The notes: generated from the sequence alone by a model not told the origin. DNA of 64,000 bases from an uncultured Syntrophobacterales bacterium (GCA_903928915.1 CAIYSL010000098.1:35179-99178), one strand, 5' to 3'. Shown: positions 39,201 to 59,800, numbered from the stretch's first letter. Program-made: numbers and translations.

Positions 39201-40144
39201 AGCACACCCACATCATCGAGGCCCAGCAGTTCAACAAACGGGCCCTGCAGGAGATACTGAGCGCGGCCGACCACATCCGGGAACGTGCGGAGCGGAACCT
39301 GCCGCTGGACCTGCTGAAGGGGAAGCTGCTGGGCAACCTCTTCTACGTACGGTCGATGCGCACCAATCTCTCCTTCGACTGTGCCATGAAGCGATTGGGC
39401 GGACAGGTGACCCCGATCGATTTCCCGGAGGAGTTCTCCTCCGAGCTGAGCGGGGGAGGCTTCGAAGACACGATACGGGTCGTAAGCTCGCTGGTGGACC
39501 TGATCGTACTGCGCCACTATCAGAGCGGTTCGGCGAAGCGGGCGGCGGACATATCGTCCGTTCCGGTCATCAACGGCGGGGACGGACCCGCGCAGCATCC
39601 GACCCAGGCGCTGATCGATCTGTACTGCATCGAAAAACTCAAAGGGGGGATCGACGGCGTCTCCATCGCCTTTATCGGCGACCTGCTGAACAGCCGCACC
39701 GTCCGGTCGCTGGTGTATTTTCTGGCGAAGTACTCGGGGATCAAGGTCTCCTTCGCCTCGCCGCGGGCGCTGCGGATCGGGGAGGATACGCAGGGGTACC
39801 TGCGGGAAAACGGCATTCCCTATGGCGAATCAGTGGACAACGCCGAAGAATTGCAGGACATCGTCTCAGGGGCGGACATTCTCTACCTCACCCAGATACC
39901 CGCGGCCCGCTTCACCGCGCATCCCGAAGACTACGCCCGCTCCCGGGAAATCTTCCGGATCGACCGGGAGTTACTGAAGATCATGAAGAAGGACACCTAC
40001 ATCATGCACCCGCTGCCCCGGGATTATGAGCTTCCCGGGGAAGTGGACGGGGACCCCCGGGCGGTGTATTTTGACCTGATCAGATACGGACAGTTCCTGC
40101 GGATGGGGCTGCTCTGCCTGGTGCTCGGGGTGTCGGCCGACTGA
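39197..40144 (+). CDS. aspartate/ornithine carbamoyltransferase-fold protein with non-canonical active-site motifs
   Basis: ATG overlaps the arcC stop (ATGA). 315 aa. HPTQ and HPLPR motifs are retained, but SMRTN replaces STRTR, SGGGFEDT replaces KGE(T/S)LxDT, and LTQIP replaces TRVQ. Confidence 0.8.
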   Translation: MKHTHIIEAQQFNKRALQEILSAADHIRERAERNLPLDLLKGKLLGNLFYVRSMRTNLSFDCAMKRLGGQVTPIDFPEEFSSELSGGGFEDTIRVVSSLVDLIVLRHYQSGSAKRAADISSVPVINGGDGPAQHPTQALIDLYCIEKLKGGIDGVSIAFIGDLLNSRTVRSLVYFLAKYSGIKVSFASPRALRIGEDTQGYLRENGIPYGESVDNAEELQDIVSGADILYLTQIPAARFTAHPEDYARSREIFRIDRELLKIMKKDTYIMHPLPRDYELPGEVDGDPRAVYFDLIRYGQFLRMGLLCLVLGVSAD

Positions 40145-40193: not shown

Positions 40194-41669
40194 CTACATG
40201 AAGATCTCGACCGACCGCTGGGCGATCAGCAGGAATCCGCGGGGAAAGATCCCCATGTGGAAGAGCGCCCAGACGCTGACGGCGATGACCACCCCGTAGG
40301 CCGGCGAGAAATCCGGTCGTCCCGCCGGTTCGGCATCGGCCGCCGCTTCGCGGAAATACATGTACATCACGACCCGGAGGTAGTAGTAGGCGGCCACGAC
40401 GCTGTTGAGCACCCCGATGACGGCCAGCCAGTAGTACTTCGCCTTGATGGCCGCGCTCAGGACGTAGAATTTCCCCATGAACCCCGCCAGGGGCGGCATC
40501 CCTGCCAGCGACAGGAGGAAGACCGTCATCGCGATCGCGATCAACGGGTGCCGGCCGGCCAGCCCCGCGTAGTGCTCGATCCCCGTCCGCTGCCTGCCCT
40601 TCTGCCCGAGGATGATCACCACGGTGAAGGCGCCGATGTTCATGAAGGTGTACACGAGGATGTAGAAGAGGATGCCCACCGAGGAAAAGAGGTCGCCCAC
40701 CACGAAGGCGATCAGGATGTACCCGGCATGGGCGATGCTCGAATAGGCGAGCATCCGCTTCACGTCATCCTGCACCAGGGCGGTGATGTTGCCGATCGTC
40801 ATCGTCGCCACGGCGATCAGCCAGAGCATGCCCGACCACGCCCCGAGCAGGGGCAGGAAGGCCGTGTAGAACACCCGGAGGAAGGCGCCGAATGCGGCGG
40901 CCTTGATCCCCGTGGCCATGAAGGCGGTGATCGACGTGGGCGCCCCTTCGTACACGTCGGGCGTCCACATGTGGAAGGGGACCGCTGCGGTCTTGAACCC
41001 GAACCCGACGACAAGCATGGCGATCCCGATCATGAACAGGGGGGTCAGCTGGAACCGCCCCGAGACGATGTAGTCGGCGATCTCGCGGATGTCCAGCAGG
41101 CCCGTCGCCGCGTACACCAGCGCGATCCCGTACAAGAGAAAGGCCGTGGCGAAGGCCCCGAGCAGGAAGTACTTGAGCGAGGCCTCTGCCGAGCGGGGGT
41201 TGCCGCTCAGCATCCCGCAGAGGACGTAGATGGCGATCGACATCACCTCGAGACCGATGAAGATCGTCACGAAGTGGGTCGACGACACCATGATCATCAT
41301 CCCCAGGACCCCGAACAACGTGAGGGCGTAGTACTCCCCCTTGACGATATCCTCGCGCTCCACGTACCGCAGCGACAGGAGCGTCACGAGGATCGCCACG
41401 ATCAGCGCCAGCGCCTTGAAGAAGGTGCCGAATGTGTCGATCGTGTACAGGCCGTTGTAGACGGCGGCGCCGGCGTTCCAGAGCGACAGGGTGAACAGCA
41501 GGGCCAGACCGCTGCCGACGAGCGCCACGGCGCCTGCGATCGTTCCGACGATCGCCCGCCTGCCGAATGCGCCCAGCAGGAGCGCGGTCATCGCGCTGAC
41601 CGTTATGATCAGTTCGGGGAGAATCGGCCCGAACGCCAATTCGGGTATTTTCACGAGCATGGTTTCCAT
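40194..41669 (-). CDS. nuoN: NADH-quinone oxidoreductase subunit N
   Basis: 491 aa, about 14 TM antiporter-like subunit. Last gene of the nuo operon. Confidence 0.9.
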   Translation of the reverse strand: METMLVKIPELAFGPILPELIITVSAMTALLLGAFGRRAIVGTIAGAVALVGSGLALLFTLSLWNAGAAVYNGLYTIDTFGTFFKALALIVAILVTLLSLRYVEREDIVKGEYYALTLFGVLGMMIMVSSTHFVTIFIGLEVMSIAIYVLCGMLSGNPRSAEASLKYFLLGAFATAFLLYGIALVYAATGLLDIREIADYIVSGRFQLTPLFMIGIAMLVVGFGFKTAAVPFHMWTPDVYEGAPTSITAFMATGIKAAAFGAFLRVFYTAFLPLLGAWSGMLWLIAVATMTIGNITALVQDDVKRMLAYSSIAHAGYILIAFVVGDLFSSVGILFYILVYTFMNIGAFTVVIILGQKGRQRTGIEHYAGLAGRHPLIAIAMTVFLLSLAGMPPLAGFMGKFYVLSAAIKAKYYWLAVIGVLNSVVAAYYYLRVVMYMYFREAAADAEPAGRPDFSPAYGVVIAVSVWALFHMGIFPRGFLLIAQRSVEIFM

Positions 41670-41675
41670 CCTCTG

Positions 41676-43214
41676 TTACGGTGCGCCAAGCGGTCCCTGC
41701 ACGGCGGGGGCCCCCATGGCGGCGATCCGTGCCTTCACGTACTTGAGGTAGCCGGCCGACGATGCGTCCATCTTCCGGAGGAACAGGCCGGGATACAGCC
41801 CCATCAGAAACACGAACAGGACGATCGTGGCGAGGATGAGGGTCTCGCGCTTCGTCAGGTCGGCAAGCAGCCGGTTCGCCTCCTGGGTAATCTTGCCGAA
41901 CATCACCCGCTGGAACATCCAGAGCATGTAGACGGCCCCGAGGATCACCCCGGTGGTGGCCAGCACGCCGTAGGTGACGTTGCTCCGGAAGGCGCCCAGG
42001 AGGATCAGGAACTCCCCCACAAACCCGTTCGTCCCGGGCAGCGCGATCGAGGAAAGGGTGATGATCATGAAGAAGACGGCCAGCCGGGGCATCACCGTGG
42101 TCAGTCCGCCGAAGTCCGCGATCATCCGGGTGTGCCGCCGCTCGTAAATCATCCCGACGACGAGGAACAGCCCCCCCGTGCTGATGCCGTGGTTGAGCAT
42201 CTGGTAGAGCCCGCCCTGGAGCCCCTGCATGTTGAAGGCGAAGATGCCGAGCATCACGTACCCCAGGTGGCTCACCGACGAGTAGGCGATCAGCCGCTTC
42301 AGGTCGGTCTGCATAATGCACATGATGGCGCCGTAGACGATGCCGATGATGGCCAGCCAGGAGATCAGCGGCGTCGCCGCGACGACGGCGGCGGGGAACA
42401 GCGGGATGGCAAACCGCAAAAACCCGTACACCCCCATCTTCAGCAGGACGCCGGCCAGGATGACGCTCCCCGCGGTCGGGGCCTCGGTATGCGCGTCGGG
42501 CAGCCAGGTGTGGAACGGGAACATCGGCACCTTGATCGCGAAGGACAGCGCGAAGGCCGCAAACAGCCAGTACTGCTTGACGGCCGGCAGGCTCGCCCGG
42601 GCGAGGGTGAAGACGTTGAAGGTATAGACCCCCGTCTCGGCGGCGTAGTGGAAGTAGAGGACCATGATGGCCAGGAGCATCAGCACGCTCCCCACCATCG
42701 TGAACAGGAAGAACTTGATCGCCGCGTAGATCCGCCGCGGGCCTCCCCACACCCCGATCAGGAGGTACATCGGGATCAGCATCAGCTCCCAGAAGATGTA
42801 GAACAACACCATGTCGAGGCTGCAGAGGGCGCCGATCATCGCCGTCTCGAGGACGAGGAAGGAGACGTAGTACTCCTTGATCTTGGTCTCGATGGCCTTC
42901 CAGGAGCAGAGGACGCAGACGATGGTCAACAGCGTCGTGAGCAGCACCAGGAGCATGCTGATGCCGTCGATTCCCACGAGGTAGCTGATGCCGAATTCGG
43001 GGAACCACTCCCGCTGTTCCACGAACTGCATCTGGACGGCCCGCTCGTCGAACCAGAAGAACAGCGGCAGGGAGAGGATGAACTCTCCGATCGTCAGGAC
43101 CAGCGCCGCCGCCTTGATGGTGAGCGTCTGCCGGCGCGGCAGCAGCATCAGCACCAGGGAGCCGGCGAGCGGCAGCAGGATCAGCGCACTCAAATAGGGA
43201 AAGGGTTCATTCAT
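41676..43214 (-). CDS. nuoM: NADH-quinone oxidoreductase subunit M
   Basis: 512 aa. Antiporter-like, with motifs FAIKVPMFPFHTWLPDAH and AYSSVSHLG. Confidence 0.9.
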   Translation of the reverse strand: MNEPFPYLSALILLPLAGSLVLMLLPRRQTLTIKAAALVLTIGEFILSLPLFFWFDERAVQMQFVEQREWFPEFGISYLVGIDGISMLLVLLTTLLTIVCVLCSWKAIETKIKEYYVSFLVLETAMIGALCSLDMVLFYIFWELMLIPMYLLIGVWGGPRRIYAAIKFFLFTMVGSVLMLLAIMVLYFHYAAETGVYTFNVFTLARASLPAVKQYWLFAAFALSFAIKVPMFPFHTWLPDAHTEAPTAGSVILAGVLLKMGVYGFLRFAIPLFPAAVVAATPLISWLAIIGIVYGAIMCIMQTDLKRLIAYSSVSHLGYVMLGIFAFNMQGLQGGLYQMLNHGISTGGLFLVVGMIYERRHTRMIADFGGLTTVMPRLAVFFMIITLSSIALPGTNGFVGEFLILLGAFRSNVTYGVLATTGVILGAVYMLWMFQRVMFGKITQEANRLLADLTKRETLILATIVLFVFLMGLYPGLFLRKMDASSAGYLKYVKARIAAMGAPAVQGPLGAP

Positions 43215-43236
43215 CTACTCGGTACCTCTCGGTTCC

Positions 43237-45225
43237 TTAAAACATCGGGATGACGACCAGATACGCGACGACGACGATCGCGCCGACGATGATCGCGAAG
43301 GCGTACTCCTGGACGTAGCCCGTCTCGACCCTCCGCAGCCGTCCGGCCAGCCGCTGCAGCGCATCGGCGGTGCCGTTGATCGCCCCCTCGATGATCCAGC
43401 CGTCGGCGACCTTCAGCAGGAAGGCGCCCAGCCGCTGCACCCCCCGGACGAACACCCGTTCGTACAGCTCATCCACGAAATACTTGTTTTCCACCCACCG
43501 GTGCAGGCCGGCGAAGCTTGCCGTGAACCGCCCGGGCAGGGCGGGGTTTTTGACATAGAACAGGTAGGCCAGGAAGATCCCCACCAGGGCGATCGCCACC
43601 GACAGGGCCATCAGCAGCATCTCCAGCGACGATTCATGGCCTGCGGCGCCGCCGGAGGCCCAGGCGGTGCTCACGAACCCGAAGGCCGTCTGCGGCTGCG
43701 CCGGCGCCGGGGCGCCCTGGCCGAACACCGGGGCCAGAAACTGCTCGATGGCGTTCGAGCCCCCCAGCACGTGGGGTACGCCCACGTACCCGCCGACGAG
43801 CGACAGGGCGGCGAGGATCACGAGCGGGACGGTCATCACCCGGGGCGACTCATGGATGTGGTGCTTCACCTCGTCGGAGGCCCGGCAGGTTCCGTGGAAG
43901 GTGCCGAAGAGCAGGCGGAACATGTAGAAGGCCGTCATCCCCGCCGTCAGCGCGGCGAGGCCCCAGATCAGCAGATAACCCTGCGAGGCGCTGAAGGCCT
44001 TCCAGAGGATCTCGTCCTTGCTGAAGAACCCGGAAAAGCCGGGGATTCCGGCGATGGCGAGGCAGGCGATCAGGAAGGTCCAGTAGGTGACCGGGGTCTT
44101 CTCCCTGAGGCCGCCCATGTTCCGCATGTCCAGCTCGCCGCTCATGGCGTGCATCACGCTCCCCGCCCCGAGGAACAGGAGCCCCTTGAAGAAGGCATGG
44201 GTCATCAGGTGGAAGATGCCCGCCGCGTAGGCCCCGACCCCCATGGCGATGAACATGAACCCGAGCTGACTGATCGTGGAGTAGGCCAGGATCTTCTTGA
44301 TGTCGTTCTGGGCGAACCCGATCGAGGCGGCGAAAAAGGCGGTGAGAACGCCGATCGTGGCCACCACCAACAGCGTGTCCGGCGCCATGCGGTACAGGAA
44401 GTTGAGCCGAGCGATCATGTAGACCCCCGCGGTCACCATCGTCGCCGCATGGATCAGCGAGCTGACCGGCGTAGGGCCTTCCATGGCATCGGGAAGCCAG
44501 ACGTACAGCGGGATCTGGGCCGACTTCCCCACTGCGCCGACGAAGAACAACAGCGTGATGATCGTGACGAGCGGTCCGTCGAGGAGCTGGGCGTGCTGCC
44601 CGATCTGAGCGAAATTCAGCGTCCAGACCCCCTTCATCCCCAGCGAGACGAACAGCAAGAAGATGCCGATCAAAAACCCGAAATCCCCGACCCGGTTCAC
44701 GATGAAGGCCTTCTTGCCCGCGTCGGACGCGGAATCCTTCTCGTACCAGAACCCGATCAGCAGGTAGGAGCAGAGCCCCACCCCCTCCCAGCCGACGAAC
44801 ATCACGAGGAGGTTGTTGCCCGTGACCAACAGGAGCATCATGAACACGAACAGGTTCAGGTACAGGAAAAACCGCTTGAACCCGGGATCGTCGTGCATGT
44901 AGCCGACCGAGTAGACGTGGATCAGGAACCCCACGCCCGTGACGACCAGGCACATAATCACCGACAGGGCGTCGAGGCGGAACCCGATCGCGACCTGGAA
45001 CTGGCCCGAGGTGATCCAGGGGTACAGATCCATCTCGAACACCCGCCCCGCGCCGGGCAGGCGGAGGAACTCGGCAAACACCAAGGCCGCGGCGATGAAC
45101 GAGCAGAAAATGGCCAAGCAGGCGACCCAGGAGACCGCAGACTTGGAGAGCCTGCCGCCGAAGGCGCTGTTGAACAGAAATCCCGCGAGGGGGAAAAAAG
45201 GGATCAGCCAGATGTAGTCTGCCAT
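43237..45225 (-). CDS. nuoL: NADH-quinone oxidoreductase subunit L
   Basis: 662 aa. WEGVGLCSYLLIGFW, LPDAMEGPTPVS, and a long C-terminal amphipathic/TM extension. Confidence 0.9.
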   Translation of the reverse strand: MADYIWLIPFFPLAGFLFNSAFGGRLSKSAVSWVACLAIFCSFIAAALVFAEFLRLPGAGRVFEMDLYPWITSGQFQVAIGFRLDALSVIMCLVVTGVGFLIHVYSVGYMHDDPGFKRFFLYLNLFVFMMLLLVTGNNLLVMFVGWEGVGLCSYLLIGFWYEKDSASDAGKKAFIVNRVGDFGFLIGIFLLFVSLGMKGVWTLNFAQIGQHAQLLDGPLVTIITLLFFVGAVGKSAQIPLYVWLPDAMEGPTPVSSLIHAATMVTAGVYMIARLNFLYRMAPDTLLVVATIGVLTAFFAASIGFAQNDIKKILAYSTISQLGFMFIAMGVGAYAAGIFHLMTHAFFKGLLFLGAGSVMHAMSGELDMRNMGGLREKTPVTYWTFLIACLAIAGIPGFSGFFSKDEILWKAFSASQGYLLIWGLAALTAGMTAFYMFRLLFGTFHGTCRASDEVKHHIHESPRVMTVPLVILAALSLVGGYVGVPHVLGGSNAIEQFLAPVFGQGAPAPAQPQTAFGFVSTAWASGGAAGHESSLEMLLMALSVAIALVGIFLAYLFYVKNPALPGRFTASFAGLHRWVENKYFVDELYERVFVRGVQRLGAFLLKVADGWIIEGAINGTADALQRLAGRLRRVETGYVQEYAFAIIVGAIVVVAYLVVIPMF

Positions 45226-45299
45226 CGATTCATATCCTCGTTAAGCTCCGGCCCCGGCCGGGTCGGTCTCTGTGCGCAGCCTGCCGCTGCGGTACGGCG

Positions 45300-45611
45300 T
45301 CACCCCTTGAGCAGGTCGATTTCGTAGGGATCGATCGTGTTGCGCTGCCGGAAGACCATGACGAAGATCGCCAGTCCGACCGCGGCCTCCACGGCGGCGA
45401 CGGTCATGATGAAGAACACGAACACGGAACCGTCCATCGACGCGAGGGTATTGGCGGCGGCGATGAACACGAGGTTCACGGCGTTCAGCATCAGCTCGAT
45501 GCACATGAAGACCACGATCACGTTCCTGCGCAGGATCGCCCCGACCGCCCCGATCGTGAAGAGGACGCCGCTCAAGATGAAACAGACCGTGGTAGAGAGT
45601 TCCGGCAACAT
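45300..45611 (-). CDS. nuoK: NADH-quinone oxidoreductase subunit K
   Basis: 103 aa, three TM helices. [11 protein letters not shown] motif. Confidence 0.9.
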
Positions 45612-45623
45612 AGGGCTCCTTTG

Positions 45624-46157
45624 TTACTTCCGCTTGGAGATGACCACCGCGCCGACGATGCCCACCAGAAGCAGGATCGACGCGATCTCGAAGGGAAAGA
45701 GGTACTCGCCGTACAGAAGCGCGCCGACCGTTTTCACGTTTCCCGCGCTGTTGACGGCGGCCGTGGAAAGGCCGCCGCTCTTGCCGGTCACCTGGAACAG
45801 GAGCGCCCCGAACAGCAGCTCGGCGAGCAGAATCGCGGTGATCACCGCCCCGGCGATCCGGACCGTCTTCGAACGCCGCGCCGCGGCGGGTGCGCTCTCG
45901 TCGCCCCGCTCCATGTGGACGAGCATGATCACGAACAGGATCAGCATCATGATCGCGCCGGCGTACACCATCACCTGCGCCACGGCGATGAACTGGGCGT
46001 TGAGCAGCAGGTAGATGACGGCCATCACGACGAAGGCGGCGATCATCCACAGCGCGCTGTGGATCGGGTTTTTCCGGGTCACCATCATCAGCGAGGTGAC
46101 GATCACCGCGGCGGCCAGCGCGATGAAGGCGAGGTCTTTCAATCCTAGTGCATCCAT
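45624..46157 (-). CDS. nuoJ: NADH-quinone oxidoreductase subunit J
   Basis: 177 aa membrane protein. YAGAIMMLILFVIM motif. Correct operon position. Confidence 0.85.
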   Translation of the reverse strand: MDALGLKDLAFIALAAAVIVTSLMMVTRKNPIHSALWMIAAFVVMAVIYLLLNAQFIAVAQVMVYAGAIMMLILFVIMLVHMERGDESAPAAARRSKTVRIAGAVITAILLAELLFGALLFQVTGKSGGLSTAAVNSAGNVKTVGALLYGEYLFPFEIASILLLVGIVGAVVISKRK

Positions 46158-46160
46158 AGA

Positions 46161-46568
46161 TCAGCCCTTATTGGAGGAAAGCAGCCTTTCCTTCGTCAGC
46201 AGAAAATCCGCGCGGGTCTCGTGAACGTACTCGTAATCCTGGCCCAGCCGGATGGCGTTGACCGGGCAGGCCTCCTGGCAGAAGCCGCAGAAGATGCAGC
46301 GCAGGGCGTCGATCTCGTAGGCGCCGGGAGTGCGGGTGCCGTCCGCGCGCTCGCTGATCGCAAGCGATATGCACCGCGCCGGACAGACGGCGACGCACAG
46401 TCCGCAGGCGACGCAGGTGGTCTCCCCGGCGGGGTTCTTCTCGAAATAGTGCATCCCCCGCCACCGCGGCGAGATGGCACGCCTCTCCTCGGGATACCGG
46501 ATCGTAACCTGCGGGGAGAAGAACATCTTCAGCGTCAGTCGAAGGCCTTTGAGCAGGGGGAGGATCAT
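46161..46568 (-). CDS. nuoI: NADH-quinone oxidoreductase subunit I (2x[4Fe-4S])
   Basis: Two CxxCxxCxxxCP motifs (CVACGLCVAVCP, CIFCGFCQEACP). Start set at ATG 46568, preceded by AGGAGAG right after the nuoH stop; the track start 46598 overlaps nuoH. Confidence 0.9.
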   Translation of the reverse strand: MILPLLKGLRLTLKMFFSPQVTIRYPEERRAISPRWRGMHYFEKNPAGETTCVACGLCVAVCPARCISLAISERADGTRTPGAYEIDALRCIFCGFCQEACPVNAIRLGQDYEYVHETRADFLLTKERLLSSNKG

Positions 46569-46581
46569 CGTCACCACTCTC

Positions 46582-47568
46582 CTAACGAAGCGCCACAACG
46601 AGGGCGGTTACCAGCACGTTGAGGAGCGCCAGGGGGAAGAGCACCTTCCACCCGAATTTCATGATCTGGTCGTACCGCATCCGCGGGAAGGTCCCCCGGA
46701 CCCAGATGAAGAAGAAGCACACCCCGCACACCTTGATGAAATACCATACCGGTCCGGGGAAGAACGGCCCCAGCCAGCCGCCGAGGAACAGGGTCACCGC
46801 CAGCGAGGCCACGGTGACCAGATGGATGTACTCGGCGATCATGAACAGGGCGAACTTCATGCTGCTGTACTCGATGTTGTATCCGCAGGCCAGTTCGCTC
46901 TCCGATTCGGGCATGTCGAAGGGTATCCGGTTGATCTCGGCAAGCCCGGCCACGAGGTACAGGATGAAGGCAAAGGGCTGGTACAGGACGAACCAGACGT
47001 CCCGCTGTGCCGCAACGATGTCGGTGAGGCGGAGCGACCCGGCCAGGATGACCGCCCCGATGACAATCAACCCCAGGGCCACCTCGTAGCTGATCATCTG
47101 GGCCGCCGCCCGGAGCGCGCCCCACAGGCCGTACTTGTTGCCCGACGCCCATCCCCCCAGGACCACCCCGTACTCGCCCAGGGTGGCCAGGGCGAAGATC
47201 AGCAGGATCCCCACGTCCACGTCGGCGATCACCAGCGCGATCTCCCGGCCGAACAGGTACACCCGGTCCCCGAAGGGGATCAGCGCGAACATCGCCAGCG
47301 CGGTGACGAAGGAGATGATCGGCGCGATCAGGTAGACCCCCTTGTCGGCCTGGCTGGGGATGATGTCCTCCTTCAGGAACGATTTGATCCCGTCGGCGAT
47401 CGGCTGGAGGAGCCCCCACCAGCCGACGCGGTTCGGTCCCGGCCGCACCTGGAGATAGCCGAGGAACTTCCGCTCGACCAGCGTCATGTATGCGACGAAG
47501 AGCATCAGGCAGGAGATGACGACCAGGTTCTTGATGACGATTTCCAGAAGATAGTACAGCTGCTGCAT
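46582..47568 (-). CDS. nuoH: NADH-quinone oxidoreductase subunit H
   Basis: 328 aa. ERKFLGYLQVRPGPNRVG and IPFDMPESESEL signatures. Confidence 0.9.
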   Translation of the reverse strand: MQQLYYLLEIVIKNLVVISCLMLFVAYMTLVERKFLGYLQVRPGPNRVGWWGLLQPIADGIKSFLKEDIIPSQADKGVYLIAPIISFVTALAMFALIPFGDRVYLFGREIALVIADVDVGILLIFALATLGEYGVVLGGWASGNKYGLWGALRAAAQMISYEVALGLIVIGAVILAGSLRLTDIVAAQRDVWFVLYQPFAFILYLVAGLAEINRIPFDMPESESELACGYNIEYSSMKFALFMIAEYIHLVTVASLAVTLFLGGWLGPFFPGPVWYFIKVCGVCFFFIWVRGTFPRMRYDQIMKFGWKVLFPLALLNVLVTALVVALR

Positions 47569-47577
47569 TGCGATCCC

Positions 47578-49980
47578 CTACGCCCGTGTTGCCGATACCG
47601 CGATCACCTTGGCCGCTGCCGGCGCCAGCGCCAGCACATCGCTCCGCTGCCGGAAGAGGAAACACTCGATCACGCCCCGGCCGAGCCCCGCCTTCACGGT
47701 CACGGGCCGCACGACCGCGCCGGAGGCGCTCTCCATCCGGAGCGCATCCCCGGTGGCGACACCGAGCGCCGCCGCGTCCTCGGGGCCGATGCAGAGCATG
47801 TCCTTCTGCACCCGCCCGACGCCCGTTGCCTCGCAGGCGGCGCCGGTCAGGTGGTGGCTGACAAAGAGGTCCCTGAGGATGAGGCGGTAGGGACGCTCCG
47901 GGGCTGCGGCAGGGGAAGCCGCCGGCGCCGCAGCCGCCAGGAACCTTCCGCGCCCGCCGCTTCGCTCCTTCGCCAGGAGCCGCTTCACCAGGTCGCCCAT
48001 CAGTTCATCGCCGTTGTACCGTTTTCCCCCCAGACGGCCCAGGAGTTGCCGCAGGAATTCCGGCCCGCCGGCTAGACCGGCAACGGCCCGCTTGAGGGCC
48101 CGCGGTGTGCCGTCGCCGGAGACGACCGTGCCCTCCTTCTCGGCGAAGCTCGCGGCGGGGACCGTCAGTCCCGCGGCCGCGGTCGTCTCCGTCGGGAAGA
48201 GGTCGCAGGCGAGGATGAATTCCTTCGTGGCCAGGGCCTTGCGCACGGTCTCCCCGTTCAGGTACTGGAAGGGGTCCTCTTCGTACAGAAAGAGCCCCGC
48301 CGTATCGGCGCCGGCCAGGACCTCCTCGGGCGAGGCGAGGGGGCCGAGTATTGCCGCGGCTCCGCGGGCATTCGCCTGGAGCGCCGTGGGGATGATCGTC
48401 CCCCGCTCCGGCAGCCCTGCCAGCAGGCAGAAATTCAGGAGCGCCTCCAGGCTCGCGTCGCAGCCGCTGATCCCGGAGCCGAACACCACGCCGATCCGGG
48501 AGGCCTCGCCGATCAGCCGGCAGGCCTTCTCGACGGTCTCGTCCGCCGCCGGGGAAGCAGATGCCGCCAGCAGGGACTGCCGGTACTCGGCGAACCCTTC
48601 GAGCCCCTCCGCCGACTGCGCGGCACGGCCCGCCGCGAGCAGGCTCCCGGCGAGCCGGTCGAACAGCGCCGCATCCCCGCCCGGCGCCACCCGCAGGTGG
48701 GCATCGGCGATCCGCGCCGGCGCGGCGTCGAGCGGATCGACGCAGATGACGCGCGCCCCGCTCTTCTTCACCGCCTCCCGGATCCGGTTCGCCAGCAGAT
48801 GGTTGTTGATCAGGAGGTCCGCGCCGGCCACGACGATCAGGTCGCAGCCGGCAAGGCCGTCATACCCGCCGGGAAGGCCGATCCCCCGGCGTCTGAACGC
48901 GGCGGCGACTTTCCCCGTATGGGAGAAGGCCGACGAGGCGAGGGCGGTCTTTTCCAGCCTGCCGGCGATCTCGGAGATCAGGAACAGCTCTTCGTTGGTG
49001 ACCCGGGGCGAGACGATGAACCCGATCCCCTTCCCTTCCGCGGAAAGCCGGCGCAGGTTGTCGGCGGCCGTGGCGACGGCCGCGGCGAAGTCGATCGTCC
49101 GGTGTGCCGAGCCCTCGCGCAGGACCGGCTGGCGCAGCCGCGCGGGGTGGTCGATGAACCCGTACCCGAACCTGCCCCGGACGCACAGCGAGGCGTCGTT
49201 GGGGTCGAGGCCGGTCCTGCCGAGCACCTTGGTGACGGTCCGGCCGTCGATCACATCCAGGACCAGGCGGCAGCCGAACCCGCAGTGGGGGCAGGCGGTC
49301 TCCACCCGGCTGGTCTGCCAGGGGCGGCTCTTGAGGGGGCTCAGGTTCTCCGTCAGGGCACCCACCGGGCAGAGGGAGAGGCACTCCCCGCAGGAGATGC
49401 AGTCGTCGCGGTCGCTGGGGGTGATGTGCCCGGCGAACCCCTTCCCGGCGAGGTCGATGGCCCTGCGGCCCGACACCTCCCGGCAGGCGCGGTAGCACCG
49501 GCCGCAGAGGACGCACCGGAGCTGCCAGTACCGGATCAGCGGCGTGGCGTAGGGTTCTGCGTCGTCCTTCCGGGGGGCCGCGTAGTCTGCCTTCTCGATC
49601 CCGTATTCGTACACCAGGTCCTGGAGCCGGCACTCGCCGCCCTTGTCGCACTGGGGGCAGTCCAGGGGGTGGGCGACCAAAAGCAGCTTGACGATCTCGC
49701 GCCGCATCCGCGCCAGCCGCTCCGAGCGGGTCGTCACGGAGATCCCCTCCGCCGCCGGCGTGGTGCAGGCGGTCATCGGTTCGGCGAACCCGTCGACCTC
49801 GACGACGCAGAGCCGGCAGGCGCCGAAAGGAAGCAGGCTTTCGTGGTGGCAGAGGGTGGGGATCTCGATGCCCCCCGCGCGCGCCGCCTCCAGGATCGTC
49901 GTGCCCGGGCCGGTGGTGATTCTCTTGCCGTCGATGGTCAGCGTTATCATAGTCCCCGTCAGTCCTTCGCTCGCGCTCAT
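47578..49980 (-). CDS. nuoG: NADH-quinone oxidoreductase subunit G (2Fe-2S, 4Fe-4S clusters, cofactor-less molybdopterin-oxidoreductase fold)
   Basis: 800 aa. ITLTIDGKRI...CHHESLLPFGACRLCVVEV (N1b), CPQCDKGGEC, CISCGECLSLCP, CPHCGFGC, then Mo-bisPGD-like domains. Alternative start ATG 49950 (MITLTIDG). Confidence 0.9.
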   Translation of the reverse strand: MSASEGLTGTMITLTIDGKRITTGPGTTILEAARAGGIEIPTLCHHESLLPFGACRLCVVEVDGFAEPMTACTTPAAEGISVTTRSERLARMRREIVKLLLVAHPLDCPQCDKGGECRLQDLVYEYGIEKADYAAPRKDDAEPYATPLIRYWQLRCVLCGRCYRACREVSGRRAIDLAGKGFAGHITPSDRDDCISCGECLSLCPVGALTENLSPLKSRPWQTSRVETACPHCGFGCRLVLDVIDGRTVTKVLGRTGLDPNDASLCVRGRFGYGFIDHPARLRQPVLREGSAHRTIDFAAAVATAADNLRRLSAEGKGIGFIVSPRVTNEELFLISEIAGRLEKTALASSAFSHTGKVAAAFRRRGIGLPGGYDGLAGCDLIVVAGADLLINNHLLANRIREAVKKSGARVICVDPLDAAPARIADAHLRVAPGGDAALFDRLAGSLLAAGRAAQSAEGLEGFAEYRQSLLAASASPAADETVEKACRLIGEASRIGVVFGSGISGCDASLEALLNFCLLAGLPERGTIIPTALQANARGAAAILGPLASPEEVLAGADTAGLFLYEEDPFQYLNGETVRKALATKEFILACDLFPTETTAAAGLTVPAASFAEKEGTVVSGDGTPRALKRAVAGLAGGPEFLRQLLGRLGGKRYNGDELMGDLVKRLLAKERSGGRGRFLAAAAPAASPAAAPERPYRLILRDLFVSHHLTGAACEATGVGRVQKDMLCIGPEDAAALGVATGDALRMESASGAVVRPVTVKAGLGRGVIECFLFRQRSDVLALAPAAAKVIAVSATRA

Positions 49981-51929
49981 CCCAGGGCCACCATGCCGAT
50001 CCGATAGCAGCGCAGACAGCGCGCCGCCTCGCCCACGGCCTCATTCAGCCGGAAGGCCGCCTCCACCTCGACGAAGCTCTTCTTGCGCTCCTCCGGGGGG
50101 AGCATCGGCTGATGCGCCCGCTTCACGCCGCCCACGAGGCTGATCTTTTCCTTCCTGTTGTACACCTTGATCGCGCCGAACAGGGCCTTGAACCGCTCTT
50201 CCTCCGTCGCCTCAGGCTTATGGCCCTTGAGGTAGGCATCGATCTTCTCGGCGGCGCGCTTGCCCGTCCCGGTGGCCTTCACCAGGACATCGGGGCCGGT
50301 GATGCAGTCGCCCGCGCTGAACACCCCCCGCTGCGACGTGGCGAAGGTCTCTGCGTCGGCGTCGATGGTGTTCCACTTCGTCAGCTTGATCCCCTCCTTC
50401 TCTTCGAGGAAAGAGAGATCGACCTTCTGGCCGATGGCCGGGATGAGGATGTCCGTCTCGATCACGAACTCCGACCCCTTGACCGGCACGGGCCTGCGGC
50501 GGCCGCTCGCGTCGGGCTCGCCCAGCTCCATCCGGATGCACTCCACCCCCACCACCTTGCCGTTTTCGGCGATGATCCGCGTGGGGTTGCAGAGGTAGTG
50601 GAACTTGACCTGTTCCTGTTCGGCGTCGTGGATCTCCACGGGGTCGGCGGGCATCTCCTTGATGGTGCGCCGGTAGACGAGGTTGACGTCGTCCTTCCCG
50701 ATCCGGAAGGAGGAGCGGACGCAGTCGATCGCCACGTTGCCGCCGCCGACCACCACCACCTTCTTCCCCTCGGGGTAGGGGTCCCGCCCCTGGCTGATGT
50801 CGAGCAGGTACCGTACGCCCGGGATGAACCCGCGGTATCCCTGCTCCTCGCCCTCCACCCCCATGGGCATGCTGTCCTGGGCGCCGACGCCGATGAACAC
50901 CGCCTCGAAATCCCGCCTGAGTTCCCCGATCGTGACCTCCCTGCCCACCTCGACGCCGTAGCGGATCTCGACCCCCGCCCGGCGGACGAGGTCCACCTCG
51001 CGCCGGAGAATCTGCCGGGGCAGGCGGAAGTCGGGGATGCCCACCGCGGCCATGCCGCCCGGCTCGGGGAGCTTCTCGAAGATCGTGGGCTGGTACCCCT
51101 TCAGGGCCAGGTAGTAGGCGCAGGAAAGCCCGGCCGGGCCGGCCCCGACGATGGCCACCTTCCGGCCGCTCCCCCCCGCGCCGGCGATCCCGGGATCGAC
51201 GCCCTTGTCGATCTCGTAATCGGCGACGGAACGCTTGAGGTCCTTGATGGCGATCGCCTCGTCCACGTTCGCCCGCCGGCAGTTCGATTCGCAGGGGCGC
51301 ACGCAGACCCTCCCCAGGGTCCCGGCCATGCAGATCCGCTGGCGGATCGTGGCGAGCGAATCGCCGAACCGCTGCTCGCCGATCTCTTCCACGTAGGTGG
51401 GGATGTCGAGGCTGCTCGGGCAGACGCTCATGCAGGGGGCCGTGACGGCGTACCGGTACCGCTCCGGGGCGGCCTTCCTCCCGCCGGATATGGCATCGGC
51501 AAAGGCCCCGGGGAAATACCGCAGCGCGTCGAGGAGGGGGACCATGCCGGTCTGGCCGATCTGGCACTTCGACCCCTCGCGGATGTTGAACGCCAGCTCG
51601 GCGATCCGCTTCACGTCCTCGTGCCTGCCCCGGCCGGAGGCGATCTTTGCGAACAGGTCGCTGACGATCCGCGAACCCACCCGGCAAGGGAAACACTTTC
51701 CGCAGGACTCCTGCTGGACGGCCTCGGCATAGCCGGCGCACATCCCGACGATGTCCGCATCGGCGTCGCGCAGGATGATCCCGTCCCACCCCAGGAAGGC
51801 CCTGATCCGCTCCCCGGGCTGGAATTCCGGCGGCAGCTTCACATTCGCCGGCTGCTTCCGCTCGCCCTCGCCGGCCGTCCGGTTGTCCACCACCTCTCCC
51901 TGCCAGGAGCTGAAAACGATATCTTCCAT
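49977..51929 (-). CDS. fusion protein: NuoF C-terminal (4Fe-4S N3-type) domain plus GltD/NfnB-like FAD/NAD(P)H oxidoreductase, in the position of nuoE/nuoF
   Basis: 650 aa. ILRDADADIVGM...ESCGKCFPCRVGS...GSKCQIGQTG is the NuoF tail. PCMSVCPSSLDIPTYV...GRVCVRPCESNC are the GltD-type Fe-S sites. VAIVGAGPAGLSCAYYL and VVVVGGGNVAIDC are two dinucleotide folds. Stop overlaps the nuoG ATG (ATGA). Confidence 0.85.
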   Translation of the reverse strand: MEDIVFSSWQGEVVDNRTAGEGERKQPANVKLPPEFQPGERIRAFLGWDGIILRDADADIVGMCAGYAEAVQQESCGKCFPCRVGSRIVSDLFAKIASGRGRHEDVKRIAELAFNIREGSKCQIGQTGMVPLLDALRYFPGAFADAISGGRKAAPERYRYAVTAPCMSVCPSSLDIPTYVEEIGEQRFGDSLATIRQRICMAGTLGRVCVRPCESNCRRANVDEAIAIKDLKRSVADYEIDKGVDPGIAGAGGSGRKVAIVGAGPAGLSCAYYLALKGYQPTIFEKLPEPGGMAAVGIPDFRLPRQILRREVDLVRRAGVEIRYGVEVGREVTIGELRRDFEAVFIGVGAQDSMPMGVEGEEQGYRGFIPGVRYLLDISQGRDPYPEGKKVVVVGGGNVAIDCVRSSFRIGKDDVNLVYRRTIKEMPADPVEIHDAEQEQVKFHYLCNPTRIIAENGKVVGVECIRMELGEPDASGRRRPVPVKGSEFVIETDILIPAIGQKVDLSFLEEKEGIKLTKWNTIDADAETFATSQRGVFSAGDCITGPDVLVKATGTGKRAAEKIDAYLKGHKPEATEEERFKALFGAIKVYNRKEKISLVGGVKRAHQPMLPPEERKKSFVEVEAAFRLNEAVGEAARCLRCYRIGMVALG

Positions 51930-51937
51930 CGCAGTCC

Positions 51938-53110
51938 CTATCTGTCGATCTCCCCGAGCACGATGTCGATGCTGCCCACGGCGGCCACCACGTCGGCGAT
52001 CATCTCCCCGACGATCATCCGCGGCAGCGCCCCGAGGTTGGCGAAGGAGGGGGTCCGAACCCGCATCCGGAACGGCTTGTTGGTGCCGTCGCTGATCAGG
52101 TAGAACCCGAGCTCCCCCTTCGACGATTCGATCGAGGAGTACACCTCGCCCGCGGGGGGCGCGAACCCCTCTTCCATCAGCTTGAAATGGCGGATCAAGG
52201 CCGCCAGGTCCTTCCCGACCGCGTCCTTGGCCGGCGGCACCACCGTCGGCAGGTCCGCGGCCACGGGTCCGTCCGGGAGCCGGTCCGCCGCCTGCGCGAC
52301 GATCCGGAGCGACTGCCGCATCTCCTGGAGCCGGACGAGGTACCGGTCGTACACGTCGCCGCTGGTCCCCAGCGGGACCGAGAAATCGAACTCCTCATAG
52401 CTCGAGTAGGGGTAGGCCTTCCGGACGTCGTAGTTCACCCCCGACGCCCGAAGCGGCGGCCCCGTGACCCCATAGCCGATGCACTCCGCGCCGGAGAGGG
52501 GGGCGATCCCCCGGGTCCGCTTCTTCCAGATGATGTTCTCGGTGAGCAGGGTCTCGTACTCGTCCACGTGGCCGGGAAACGACGCGATGAAGGCGCGCAC
52601 CCGCGGCAGGAAGCTCTCCGGGATGTCCGCGGCCAGCCCGCCGATCCGCACGAAGCTCGGGGTGAGCCGGGCGCCGGTGACGAGCTCCATCGCCTCGATG
52701 ATCTCCTCCCGCTCCCGGAAGGTGTAGAACAGGGCCGTCATCGCCCCGAGGTCCAGGGCGTGGGTCCCCAGCCACAAGAGATGCGCCGCGATCCGCTGGA
52801 GCTCCGCCAGCATCACCCGGAGGTACTGGGCCCGCTTCGGGATCTCGATCCCCAGGAGCTTTTCCACCGCCAGGCAGTAGGAGAGGTTGTTGGAGAACCC
52901 GCTGGTGTAGTCCATCCGGTCGGTGAGGGTCAGGGCCTGGGGGTAGGTCATCGACTCGGCGAGCTTTTCGAGCCCCCGGTGGAGGTACCCGATGTGGGGC
53001 ACCACCGAGACCACGACCTCGCCGTCCAGCTCCAACAGCAGCCGGAGCACCCCGTGCGTCGCCGGGTGCTGGGGCCCCATGTTGATCGTCATCAGGTTCG
53101 TTTCAGACAT
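51938..53110 (-). CDS. nuoD: NADH-quinone oxidoreductase subunit D
   Basis: Start at [24 protein letters not shown] (ATG 53110); the longer track start would overlap nuoC more deeply. Ends ...GSIDIVLGEIDR. Confidence 0.9.
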   Translation of the reverse strand: MSETNLMTINMGPQHPATHGVLRLLLELDGEVVVSVVPHIGYLHRGLEKLAESMTYPQALTLTDRMDYTSGFSNNLSYCLAVEKLLGIEIPKRAQYLRVMLAELQRIAAHLLWLGTHALDLGAMTALFYTFREREEIIEAMELVTGARLTPSFVRIGGLAADIPESFLPRVRAFIASFPGHVDEYETLLTENIIWKKRTRGIAPLSGAECIGYGVTGPPLRASGVNYDVRKAYPYSSYEEFDFSVPLGTSGDVYDRYLVRLQEMRQSLRIVAQAADRLPDGPVAADLPTVVPPAKDAVGKDLAALIRHFKLMEEGFAPPAGEVYSSIESSKGELGFYLISDGTNKPFRMRVRTPSFANLGALPRMIVGEMIADVVAAVGSIDIVLGEIDR

Positions 53111-53618
53111 CGCGGGTGTACCCCGTCTCTTCCTCGGCGCAGAGGTCCACCGGTTTGTCGAACTCATGCCCCGCCAGGGGAAACTCCTTGCGCAGCGGAT
53201 GGCCGACGAACTCTTCCGTCAGCAGGATGCGCCGGAGGTCGGGATGGCCGGCGAAGCGGACCCCGAACATGTCGTACACCTCCCGTTCGAGCCATTCCGC
53301 CCCCTGCCAGAGGTCGCTCACCGTATCCACCTCCGCCCCCTCGGCCACGCCGGTCTTGACCCGGAGCCGGTTGGTGTGGCTGAGCGAGTTCAGCAGGTAG
53401 ACGACCATCAGCCGGGGCGCCCCGTCCCCGCAATCCACGCCGGCCATGTCGACCAGCAGGTCGTACCGGGCCGCCGGGTCCTCCTTCAGGAAGCGCATCA
53501 CCCCCCGGAGCGCGGTCCGGTCGATCGTCACGGTGGTCTCGCCGCGGAACTCCTCGACGGACCGCACCGCCGCGGGGAAGCGCTCTCTCAGCAGCTCGGC
53601 AACGGCGCGGCTATCCAT
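53103..53618 (-). CDS. nuoC: NADH-quinone oxidoreductase subunit C
   Basis: 171 aa. [29 protein letters not shown] signature. Confidence 0.9.
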
Positions 53619-54111
53619 TGTGCTCCCCCCAGGGCAGGCTGACGAGCTTTCGCTGGCCCGGCAGCTCCCGGCCGATCTTCTCCTGCAGCACCATCAGCCC
53701 CTTGAGCAGGCTTTCCGGACGGGGCGGGCAGCCGGGGATGTAGACGTCCACCGGGACGATCCGGTCCACCCCCTGGACGACGTTGTAGGTCCGAAACACC
53801 CCGCCGCTGGAGGCGCAGGCCCCGTAGGCGATCACCCATTTCGGCTCGGTCATCTGGTCGTAAATCCTCCGGAGCACCGGCGCCATCTTCCGGGTCACCG
53901 TGCCGGCGACGATCATCAGGTCGGCCTGACGCGGCGTCGGCCGGAACACCTCGGCGCCGAAGCGGGCGATGTCGTAGGTCGCCGCCGAGGCGACCATCAT
54001 CTCCAGCGCGCAGCAGGCCAGGCCGAAGGTGACCGGCCAGATCGAATTCTTCCGCGCCCAGTTGATGACGTCCTGCAGCGTCTCGGGCGCCGTGCCGTCC
54101 GCTATTCCCAT
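53611..54111 (-). CDS. nuoB: NADH-quinone oxidoreductase subunit B
   Basis: Start at ATG 54111 ([39 protein letters not shown]). GCPPRPE motif. The 316-aa track ORF is an upstream extension through nuoA. Confidence 0.9.
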
Positions 54112-54455
54112 TCCAGAGCCCCCTTCTTCAGGACATACACGTACCCCACCAGGAGGATGAGCACGAACAGCAGCATCTCGCCGAAGCCGAACAGGCCGAG
54201 CGAATCCGCCATCACCGCCCAGGGGTACAGGAACATGATCTCGATGTCGAAGATCAAAAACAGCATCGCCACGATGTAGTACCGGATCCTGATCTTCATC
54301 TTGGTGGGGCCGATGGTCGGCATCCCGCATTCGTACGGGGCGAGCTTCACCTTGCCGGAGATCCGGTGGCCGAGGATGTGCGAGGCGCCCACGATCAAGA
54401 CGGCGATGCCGATGGCAAAAACCATCGTGACGAGGATGGGGAGATACTCGATCAT
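54102..54455 (-). CDS. nuoA: NADH-quinone oxidoreductase subunit A
   Basis: 117 aa, three TM helices. YECGMPTIG and [14 protein letters not shown] motifs. First gene of the operon. Confidence 0.9.
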
Positions 54456-59161: not shown

Positions 59162-59800
59162 ATGGCCAAGGAAGAGAAAGATCCGCACGAACACAAGGAA
59201 CAGCAGAAGAATCCGCTCGCAATTTCCCGGCGCACCTTCCTGAAGGGGGTAGGGACGACCGCCATCGCCACGTCGATCACCATCGCCCCCCTCCCCCTGC
59301 CCTCGGCCGCCGATGCCGCCCCGCCTCCCGCACGCAGGGAGGCCTGGATCCAGCTCACCGTGAACGACACGGTCCACCGCCTGAAGGTCAAGTCCCATTG
59401 GACCCTCCTGGAAGTGCTGCGCAAGCAGGCCGGCCTCACCGGCACGAAGAAATTCTGCGACCGGGGGAGCTGCGGGGCCTGCACGGTCATCGTGGACGGC
59501 AGGGCCGTGTACGCCTGCTCCTTTTTGGCCATCGCGGCCGACAACAGGAAGGTCCTCACCATCGAGGGGCTGCTCCAGGGAGGGAAGCTCCATCCGATCC
59601 AGGAGGCCTTCCTGGAGCACGACGGCCTGCAGTGCGGGTTCTGCACCCCCGGCCAGATCATGTCGGTCAAGGCCCTGCTGGACAAGAATCCCCGCCCCAG
59701 CGCCGACGAGATCAAGGAGGGCCTTTCGGGCAATGTCTGCCGCTGCTCCGCCTACCCCAAAATCCTTAAATCGGCCCTGGCCGCCGCCCGGCGAGGATAG
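59162..59800 (+). CDS. Tat-exported (2Fe-2S)-binding small subunit of a xanthine-dehydrogenase-family molybdoenzyme (PaoA/CoxS-like)
   Basis: 212 aa. Twin-arginine signal ISRRTFLKGVGT. Plant-type CDRGSCGACTV and second cluster CGFCTPGQ...CRCSAY. Confidence 0.9.
   Translation: MAKEEKDPHEHKEQQKNPLAISRRTFLKGVGTTAIATSITIAPLPLPSAADAAPPPARREAWIQLTVNDTVHRLKVKSHWTLLEVLRKQAGLTGTKKFCDRGSCGACTVIVDGRAVYACSFLAIAADNRKVLTIEGLLQGGKLHPIQEAFLEHDGLQCGFCTPGQIMSVKALLDKNPRPSADEIKEGLSGNVCRCSAYPKILKSALAAARRG

Follow-up and report, generated by a model that had tools for sequence, protein, structure and literature searches.

In a 64,000-nucleotide stretch of DNA from an uncultured Syntrophobacterales bacterium (GCA_903928915.1 CAIYSL010000098.1:35179-99178; the whole stretch is hereafter the window), the operon encoding complex I (nuo) carries a single gene, which we call X (49977..51929, minus strand), in the slot of nuoE and nuoF. 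Its 650-residue product joins the C-terminal domain of NuoF to a GltD/NfnL-like FAD/NADPH iron-sulfur flavoprotein. The reading we favour, and regard as probable though far from certain when judged from sequence, is that this operon encodes a NADP(H)-linked, reversible, proton-pumping menaquinone oxidoreductase in which the single polypeptide X replaces both NuoE and NuoF at the tip of a 13-subunit complex I. An input module based on FMN and NADH is the defining feature of complex I; a FAD-based version linked to NADP(H) would amount to a separate enzyme activity, and we know of no proton-pumping NADPH:menaquinone oxidoreductase, running in this or the reverse direction, that has been characterised.

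The replacement itself has already been noted in Campylobacterota as a hypothesis. Our literature searches, with most subscription journals outside their coverage, returned no description of the Desulfobacterota form of this X-type complex I or of the selenocysteine-bearing nuo operons presented below. The X-type system is relevant to how syntrophs and chemoautotrophs achieve reverse electron transport, and to how the electron-input (N-) module of complex I arose in modular fashion.

Operon context of X

The operon lies on the minus strand at 40194-54455 as a tightly packed run of 13 genes in the order nuoA-B-C-D-X-G-H-I-J-K-L-M-N, the order given in an initial annotation of the window. Pfam matched each of the Nuo families A, B, C, D, G, H, I, J, K, L, M and N among the genes flanking X, with the complex I core (NuoA-D, NuoH-N) and NuoG all present in this one operon. 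Adjacent genes overlap or are spaced by 3-22 nt, the sole exception being the 74 nt between nuoK and nuoL, and independent contigs with an identical X protein show the same gene calls. The X reading frame begins with ATG and contains every motif initially quoted for it. Its TGA stop overlaps the ATG of nuoG as ATGA, as first described; the spacer between the nuoD stop and the X start is 8 nt long, not the 9 nt given at that time. The view of X as an integral operon member is borne out by a translationally coupled slot that is conserved in 59 loci of two phyla. The operon is bordered by divergent feoAB upstream and by a convergent carbamoyltransferase gene, ending at 40144, downstream; promoter and terminator scans at its two ends returned nothing usable.

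Neither a NuoE nor the flavin domain of NuoF was found in the 64-kb window when Pfam was applied to the operon genes and about 50 further open reading frames (ORFs), in agreement with the initial annotation. A tblastn search of the same 64 kb with NuoE-like and full NuoF-like queries matched only the N-terminal part of X: the NuoE query had no match in the window better than E 0.66, and the full NuoF-like query aligned to X solely via its residues 428-545. We therefore reject the possibility of a hidden or overlooked nuoE/nuoF pair within the window.

Domain architecture and predicted cofactors of X

Three Pfam domains make up most of X: NADH_4Fe-4S (PF10589) at residues 64-144, Fer4_20 (PF14691) at 162-242 and Pyr_redox_2 (PF07992) at 257-556. 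No Pfam match was obtained in X to the Complex1_51K/FMN domain (PF01512), to SLBB or to the NuoE-type thioredoxin-like domain, which upholds the earlier claim that X starts with only the C-terminal part of NuoF and has no intact FMN/NADH-binding NuoF domain. X is a member of no curated NCBIfam equivalog. It scores 55.1 bits against the nuoF model (TIGR01959), below the cut-off of 558.65, and it falls below the cut-offs of gltA, gltD, PRK12814 and PRK12771, the best scores being 452.7 against 916, 444.3 against 516 and 345.9 against 471.75.

The NuoF-derived part corresponds to the C-terminal four-helix bundle (residues 64-144, 51498..51740, minus strand; PF10589, E 1.4e-21), and residues from about 30 to 150 align with the C-terminal part of NuoF/Nqo1/HydB/HoxF that forms the bundle of cluster N3. 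C76, C79, C82 and C122 are the candidate ligands of an N3-type [4Fe-4S] cluster; they occupy the CxxCxxC...C positions, so that all four cysteines of the N3 domain are present. Across 31 orthologues and 12 diverse homologues C76, C79 and C122 are invariant, and C82 is replaced by glycine in Campylobacterota. Ahead of this bundle, and outside all Pfam domains, lies an N-terminal motif, FSxWxGExxDNR (residues 6-17, 51879..51914, minus strand), in which F6, S7, W9, D15, N16 and R17 are invariant over the same 43 sequences. The motif is nearly invariant in X homologues from two phyla, both those linked to nuo genes and those standing alone, and is possibly an interface.

The remainder of X is a GltD-type module with two iron-sulfur sites and FAD- and NAD(P)H-binding folds, as first proposed, to which our analysis adds that the module is circularly permuted. 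The Fer4_20 region (residues 162-242, 51204..51446, minus strand) matches profile positions 28-111 only and supplies the ligands C166, C170, C209, C213, C217 and K232, and the first Cys-x-x-Cys of the GltD-type cluster pair is found at the opposite end of the protein, in a segment (residues 610-641, 50007..50102, minus strand) that ends in RC638LRC641. In the alignment X 610-641 (…EAARCLRC) corresponds to NfnB 11-42 (…EAQRCLQC) and X 163 resumes at NfnB 44; the same segment also aligns with the corresponding C-terminal segment of NfnA/StnC. The permutation explains both the partial Fer4_20 match and why X seems short of cysteines. Cysteines 166, 170, 209, 213, 217, 638 and 641 and Lys232 are invariant in the 31 orthologues and in 52 homologues down to 37% identity. 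Lys232 aligns with Lys170 of Caldicellulosiruptor saccharolyticus NfnA (9bov_A), a residue that, together with three cysteines, ligates the FAD-proximal [4Fe-4S] cluster in the NfnABC structure from that species. Seven cysteines and one lysine are the ligand set for two [4Fe-4S] clusters and match clusters A6/A7 of NfnA; X is predicted to carry two clusters of the GltD type.

Both dinucleotide folds lie within residues 257-556 (50262..51161, minus strand; Pyr_redox_2, E 4.8e-28). The FAD motif GAGPAG (262-267) and GGGNVA (395-400, of the form GxGxxA) are invariant, as is Y419-R420-R421, which aligns with Y310-R311-R312 of Thermotoga maritima NfnB. The GxGxxA form has been associated with NADP(H) in the Stn paper (PMC7483475), and Y310, R311 and R312 of NfnB have been named as residues that bind the NADP(H) phosphate (10.1101/717884). 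With its Fer4_20 region, both dinucleotide folds, a two-cluster ligand set and the NADPH residues, X has the features of the family that comprises GltD, NfnL and dihydropyrimidine dehydrogenase (DPD). Sequence motifs are imperfect predictors of nucleotide use, and NADH-specific members of the GltD family exist among the glutamate synthases, so it is conceivable that the complex uses NADH and that X is a FAD-based stand-in for the FMN-based NuoEF. We hold this to be quite improbable: neither GxGxxA nor the Tyr-Arg-Arg of the 2'-phosphate site varies in any of 52 sequences with identities as low as 37%, and NADPH is the nucleotide used by every characterised relative (NfnA/StnC, NfnB, SfrB and the Moorella formate dehydrogenase beta subunit).

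The closest characterised counterparts of residues 158-641 are the NfnL-like modules of NfnA/StnC (9bov_A, 383 bits; 9n5u_A, 362; 8oh5_C, 338), ranked above T. maritima NfnB (318 bits) and then the L subunit of Pyrococcus furiosus NfnI, GltD and DPD. An AlphaFold2 model of X built with 52 homologues (pLDDT 84.6, pTM 0.85) gave the same ranking in Foldseek, with NfnA of NfnABC and StnC as top matches and TM scores, relative to the target, of 0.72-0.80 for NfnL, GltD and DPD. This ranking bears on a further reading, namely that X is a bifurcating or confurcating module that couples menaquinone/menaquinol to NADP(H) and ferredoxin, yielding NADPH and reduced ferredoxin when run in reverse. X shares ancestry with NfnB/NfnL, the subunit whose FAD performs bifurcation in NfnSL; a bifurcating model has been proposed for the complex I type that contains Suden_1824 (10.1101/717884; see below); and anaerobes of both host groups require reduced ferredoxin. 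Nevertheless X is nearer to NfnA/StnC (383 and 338 bits) than to NfnB, and shares with them both the permutation and the lysine ligand. In those enzymes NADPH binds at the FAD of the module and electrons leave it singly along an iron-sulfur wire, so that the corresponding FAD is not the site of bifurcation, which takes place elsewhere, at the FMN of NfnB. Neither an NfnS/NfnA-type 2Fe-2S/FAD partner, nor an FMN-bearing BfuB, nor a NuoE/BfuC is encoded in the operon or the window, leaving the FAD of X with no visible second electron exit. A bifurcating role is accordingly the less likely one, and we rate it as improbable; the initial proposal of an input module rebuilt around a FAD flavoprotein retains its sequence support, strengthened by the NADPH signatures, and its bifurcating option loses ground on the NfnA/StnC analogy.

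Distribution and conservation of X

A first scan, restricted to one genome per species, recovered 36 X loci, all from metagenome-assembled genomes (MAGs), and in 34 of these species genomes X lies between nuoD and nuoG or nuoH of a full nuo operon; the survey of nuoD-X-nuoG junctions thus extends the window's arrangement to related genomes. The loci are labelled Syntrophales, Syntrophus or Syntrophaceae, Syntrophorhabdales, Syntrophobacterales and other Thermodesulfobacteriota, with six from Arcobacteraceae/Campylobacterota, in which X is full length and 36-39% identical to the window protein. A metagenome scan added 80 loci and brought the number of full-length X genes to 96, 59 of them nuo-linked and drawn from two phyla, with start-stop overlaps or gaps of a few nucleotides common around the nuo-linked copies. 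Homologues more than about 49% identical to the window protein are almost all nuo-linked. The X-type operon is not rare: dozens of uncultured species assigned to Syntrophales, Syntrophorhabdales and other Desulfobacterota have it as their nuo operon, and among some chemoautotrophic Campylobacterota a related form is found throughout.

Since two thirds of NuoF are missing from X, it might be supposed that the gene has decayed, a cut-down nuoF having become joined by accident to a gltD-like neighbour, and that the operon does not function. This is effectively refuted: the full-length architecture, the N-terminal motif and the cofactor ligands are kept from 92% down to 36% identity in more than 90 loci, the codon-position GC of X (0.66/0.45/0.93) is the pattern of expressed genes in the host genome, and the AlphaFold2 model is confident. 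A truncated pseudogene was rejected on the full-length conservation, and a chance ORF on the recurrence of the same full-length protein in the same slot in dozens of other genomes.

No isolate of the window type is evident. One locus (L007) bears the label Syntrophus aciditrophicus, which we considered as a cultured host and rejected: strain SB in culture has been reported to possess neither membrane complex I genes nor NADH:DMN activity, so that the MAG label identifies no usable isolate.

Two loci contain additional genes of related make-up. Divergently upstream of nuoA, one (L005:859-7202, minus strand) encodes a NuoE-like protein of 151 aa, a NuoF/HydB-like protein of 630 aa, a NuoG/FDH-like protein of 836 aa and a separate GltD-like protein of 474 aa; the cluster indicates that canonical NuoEF-type proteins can coexist with an X-type operon, and these are presumably part of a soluble complex. 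In another (L022:3-1931, minus strand), the same MAG contig holds an X paralogue that is longer, retaining a more N-terminal stretch of NuoF (…GGPSGG…) ahead of its 4Fe-4S domain and GltD module, and that runs off the end of the locus. It may represent a full NuoF-GltD fusion, a possible precursor of the architecture of X.

The NuoG-like partner and standalone X-G pairs

The gene that follows X (nuoG-like, 47578..49980, minus strand) encodes an 800-residue protein with Pfam matches to Fer2_4, NADH-G_4Fe-4S_3, Fer4_Nqo3, Molybdop_Fe4S4, Molybdopterin and Molydop_binding. It contains 2Fe-2S, N5, N4 and N7-type motifs (HxxxCxxCxxxxxC; CxxCxxC/CxxCxxCxxxCP; CxxCxxxC) and a molybdopterin-type domain. 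At 340 bits it falls below the NCBIfam NuoG cut-off of 470, and its N-terminal 450 residues score higher against the alpha subunit of NAD-dependent formate dehydrogenase (268 bits) than against the NuoG of Escherichia coli or mycobacteria (about 190). In an alignment to Rhodobacter capsulatus FdsA, unrelated residues stand where the catalytic ...CARxC/U-H... motif would be; we therefore reject an active formate dehydrogenase in the window and take its NuoG to be a wire.

X and its NuoG-like partner (G) also travel together. In rearranged operons the two relocate jointly, to the order D-H...N-X-G in L055 and L-M-N-A-B-C-D-X-G in L064 and L079, and homologues of 38-48% identity occur as standalone X-G pairs, their flanks free of nuo genes for up to 8 kb in both directions (L065, L070, L075, L078, L086, L087, L090, L094, L098, L112 and others). 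Clear standalone cases number 11, with 26 more on shorter contigs, and X and G are adjacent in 34 of the standalone loci. The partner takes one of three forms: an SfrA/FdhA-like protein of 820-945 aa, a protein of 600-650 aa, or a HoxU-like iron-sulfur protein of 235-250 aa, which paired with X may constitute a minimal NADPH:acceptor oxidoreductase. Together, standalone pairs and joint relocation indicate that the two genes form a mobile module able to act alone as well.

Selenocysteine-bearing operons and origin of the module

In six nuo-linked loci (L019, L055, L059, L060, L061 and L084) the gene in the nuoG slot is interrupted by an in-frame TGA, within ...GTNNVDHCARL-TGA-HSSTVAGL..., as exemplified by L019:11996-14692 in the Syntrophobacterales MAG JAOACS010000021.1. 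CARL-U-HSSTVAGL is the selenocysteine-histidine signature of formate dehydrogenases, and a conserved SECIS-type hairpin, GUGGCCGGUCUGGCCAC, lies 15 nt downstream of the selenocysteine (Sec) TGA. On the strength of this signature and hairpin, the six operons appear to encode a complex I equipped with both X and a genuine Sec formate dehydrogenase (FDH). The same signature is found in four standalone pairs, in which the partner is of the SfrA/FdhA-like type.

In a neighbour-joining tree of X, nuo-linked copies form clades that have good support and are separate from standalone X. The largest group of Desulfobacterota, their main nuo clade, holds 45 taxa (bootstrap 99), and the Sec-type loci are basal within it, a position consistent with an ancestral FDH state and later decay as in the window. 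Campylobacterota nuo-linked X groups apart from this clade and with the standalone clade (bootstrap 77), so that two independent recruitments of X onto nuo are possible, in a tree made by a simple method whose deep branches have support of 37-63. The nearest relatives of X outside nuo operons are the standalone X-G pairs of FdhAB/SfrAB make-up. The best reading of these sequence relationships is that an X-G module, an enzyme resembling FdhAB or SfrAB, was recruited onto a Nuo core and that its molybdopterin site decayed in the window lineage.

A bolder version of this history, which we put forward tentatively and think rather less probable than not, holds that complex I acquired a second, independent pyridine-nucleotide input when a NADP-dependent formate dehydrogenase, with Sec-FDH as alpha and X as beta subunit, docked on a Nuo core of 11 subunits, an event paralleling the ancient one in which NuoEFG was taken over from a NAD-dependent enzyme; the Sec operons would be living intermediates and the window type would run backwards in syntrophs. 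Were this so, the Sec-type operons would encode membrane-bound, proton-coupled formate/NADPH:menaquinone oxidoreductases, and the syntroph enzyme would spend proton-motive force to carry electrons from menaquinol, generated by acyl-CoA oxidation, to NADPH or, in the Sec type, to formate, thereby supplying a missing route for reverse electron transport. The series from standalone FdhAB/SfrAB, through nuo with Sec-FDH, to nuo with a decayed FDH offers a natural experiment on the acquisition of an N-module and on the origin of the 'relic' molybdopterin domain in NuoG.

Proposed electron path and direction

Under our favoured reading, a NADP(H)-linked complex I, hydride would pass from NADPH to the FAD of X, and single electrons would then move to its two GltD-type [4Fe-4S] clusters, the FAD-proximal one held by three cysteines and Lys232, with C638 and C641 completing the pair. 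From there they would reach the N3-type [4Fe-4S] cluster in the retained NuoF C-terminal domain, which would act both as wire and as the piece that docks X onto NuoG, and would continue through the NuoG clusters to NuoI, NuoB and menaquinone, a transfer that would drive or be driven by proton movement. The rest of the complex, with NuoA-D and NuoH-N as membrane arm and quinone module and NuoG as iron-sulfur scaffold, is ordinary. The cofactors of X, its preference for NADPH, its attachment to the complex, the direction of electron flow and the coupling to proton pumping are all predicted features of this scheme.

The reaction is expected to be reversible and, run forward with menaquinone, able to drive proton pumping; its physiological direction may be the reduction of NADP+ by menaquinol driven by proton-motive force. 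We consider the reverse direction because the hosts, syntrophic Desulfobacterota and sulfur-oxidising Campylobacterota, need uphill electrons from quinol, and for the syntrophs it follows by inference from the same logic as was applied to Sulfurimonas denitrificans. As both host groups must lift electrons from quinol to pyridine nucleotides or formate, the X-type enzyme is a testable candidate for that step.

Several points weigh against this scheme. The motifs for nucleotide specificity are predictive and fall short of proof. The absence of nuoEF applies to the 64-kb window, and a canonical nuoEF could be encoded elsewhere in the genome. The third N3 cysteine is glycine in Campylobacterota, where the cluster may be differently ligated or absent. 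In two operons, L026 (8813-8830) and L050, nuoG is missing from its place and nuoH comes straight after X, which would be odd if NuoG is an obligatory bridge; the cause could be faulty assembly or genuine variation. L050 has a NuoG-like gene upstream of nuoA instead. Finally, the same literature searches found no biochemistry on any member, in line with the initial annotation, which knew of no biochemical description.

Instead of attaching to the membrane arm as predicted, X and NuoG might form a soluble, co-transcribed NADPH oxidoreductase of the SfrAB kind that is only genetically embedded in the operon, the 11-subunit membrane complex being fed by ferredoxin or another donor. The 11 clear X-G pairs lacking nuo genes within 8 kb on each side fit such an arrangement, 11-subunit complexes without an N-module are common in the literature, and in L026 and L050 no nuoG adjoins X. 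What makes it unlikely in our judgement is that the position between nuoD and nuoH is kept in two phyla and 59 loci, commonly with overlaps or gaps of a few nucleotides; that the window NuoG has lost the molybdopterin active-site motif and kept the full complex I cluster chain, which suits a wire and not an enzyme; and that nuo-linked X falls into well-supported clades distinct from the standalone proteins.

Comparison with known systems

The nearest precedent is in Campylobacterota. In a 2019 preprint (10.1101/717884), Götz et al. described an NfnB-like protein, Suden_1824 (with Suden_1823/1822), in the NuoF slot of Sulfurimonas denitrificans and relatives, followed by two NuoG copies, and proposed, as a hypothesis only, that this complex I runs in reverse and possibly bifurcates. 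As in the window, a protein with PF10589, PF14691 and PF07992 occupies the NuoF slot between nuoD and nuoG, a likeness that we draw from the match between the preprint's description and our Arcobacteraceae loci and not from the Suden_1824 sequence. The YRR NADPH motif is common to the window X and Campylobacterota X, with function hypothetical in both. Unlike the window, the Arcobacteraceae operons have an 88-aa PF16514 'NADH-UOR_E' (NuoE-like) gene between nuoD and X (L029:9707-9973) and two NuoG-like genes after X (L029:11974-16736), and the N3 motif is CxxCxxG in Campylobacterota against the complete CxxCxxC of the window protein. The window form belongs to a different phylum, has no PF16514 gene and has one nuoG, and is probably of separate origin.

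Among soluble enzymes, the FdhAB of Moorella thermoacetica and the SfrAB of Geobacter sulfurreducens resemble X-G in pairing an SfrB-type beta subunit, a NADPH/FAD iron-sulfur flavoprotein, with an alpha subunit composed of a NuoG-like N-terminus and a molybdopterin domain; the likeness rests on literature descriptions. The purified NADPH-dependent formate dehydrogenase of M. thermoacetica has an SfrB-type beta subunit encoded by 'sfrB2', SfrB of Geobacter and the SfrB-like partner of the Pelobacter hydrogenase have been described as NADPH-oxidising subunits, and many X homologues are annotated by JGI as 'formate dehydrogenase (NADP+) beta subunit'. FdhAB and SfrAB are soluble and have no membrane partner, whereas the window pair lies within a nuo operon and its alpha-type subunit lacks the Cys/Sec-His motif. 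X accordingly shows the architecture and gene adjacency of SfrB/FdhB (KEGG K15022-type) and departs from that group's soluble enzyme with a catalytic alpha subunit.

The NfnA/StnC subunits of Bfu-type transhydrogenases (PDB 9bov, 9n5u, 8oh5) share with X the permutation, the lysine cluster ligand and the NADPH site. There, however, the module is inserted in a NuoG-like polypeptide behind a 2Fe-2S domain, and FMN-bearing NuoF-like and NuoE-like partners carry out bifurcation, whereas X begins with the NuoF C-terminal domain, is a polypeptide separate from NuoG and has no FMN partner, with no BfuB/BfuC-like genes in the window. 'Nuo-Bfu' complexes were rejected as its identity because they keep the FMN-bearing BfuB/BfuC. 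Canonical NuoEF occupies the same slot and has the same N3-type [4Fe-4S] four-helix domain, yet comprises an FMN/NADH domain, SLBB, NuoE and the N1a cluster, as against the FAD and NADPH predicted for X. A precedent for a slot swap with change of donor is complex I of Campylobacter jejuni and Helicobacter pylori, in which NuoE/F give way to Cj1575c/Cj1574c and the donor is flavodoxin; these replacements are unrelated to X, except for the small PF16514 subunit that the Arcobacteraceae operons also encode. Other Nuo variants (Degli Esposti 2015; Spero 2015) are not of the X type.

Other genes of the operon and the window

The remaining operon genes, all on the minus strand, are as follows. Upstream of X lie nuoA (54102..54455, 117 aa; Oxidored_q4, E 1.7e-35; gene call repeated on an independent contig), nuoB (53611..54111, 166 aa, overlapping nuoA by 10 nt; Oxidored_q6, E 1.7e-30), nuoC (53103..53618, 171 aa; Complex1_30kDa, E 6.5e-43) and nuoD (51938..53110, 390 aa with the start called on other contigs, the longest ORF extending to 53167; Complex1_49kDa, E 3e-114). 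Downstream of nuoG come nuoH (46582..47568, 328 aa; NADHdh, E 4e-123), nuoI (46161..46568, 135 aa, with two Fer4 motifs; gene call from independent contigs), nuoJ (45624..46157, 177 aa; Oxidored_q3, E 2.8e-41), nuoK (45300..45611, 103 aa; Oxidored_q2, E 1.8e-25), nuoL (43237..45225, 662 aa; Proton_antipo_N, Proton_antipo_M and Proton_antipo_C), nuoM (41676..43214, 512 aa; Proton_antipo_M, E 2.6e-79) and the final gene, nuoN (40194..41669, 491 aa; Proton_antipo_M, E 1e-75).

Convergent with the operon, a plus-strand cluster (34184-40144) encodes AllH-like, AllG-like, FdrA-like (with a CoA-ligase domain), carbamate-kinase-like and carbamoyltransferase proteins, an oxamate/carbamoyl-phosphate branch of purine or allantoin degradation, with a PnrA/Bmp-type ABC transporter just ahead of it (29466-34167). 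Across the nuo operon, three plus-strand genes (59162-63064) for the 2Fe-2S, MoCo-binding and FAD subunits of a xanthine-dehydrogenase-family molybdoenzyme fit with these purine-degradation genes. Near the start of the window, a 694-aa plus-strand ORF (1615-3699) has no Pfam match and a codon-position GC of 0.81/0.49/0.66, compared with about 0.65/0.45/0.90 in its neighbours; it may encode a low-complexity protein or may be no genuine gene at all. Further along, a plus-strand gene (14299-19893) encodes a 1864-aa hybrid sensor kinase with Cache, PAS, GAF and HisKA/HATPase domains, two receiver domains and Hpt, followed at 20692-23071 by a response regulator and a CHASE-HD-GYP-type protein.

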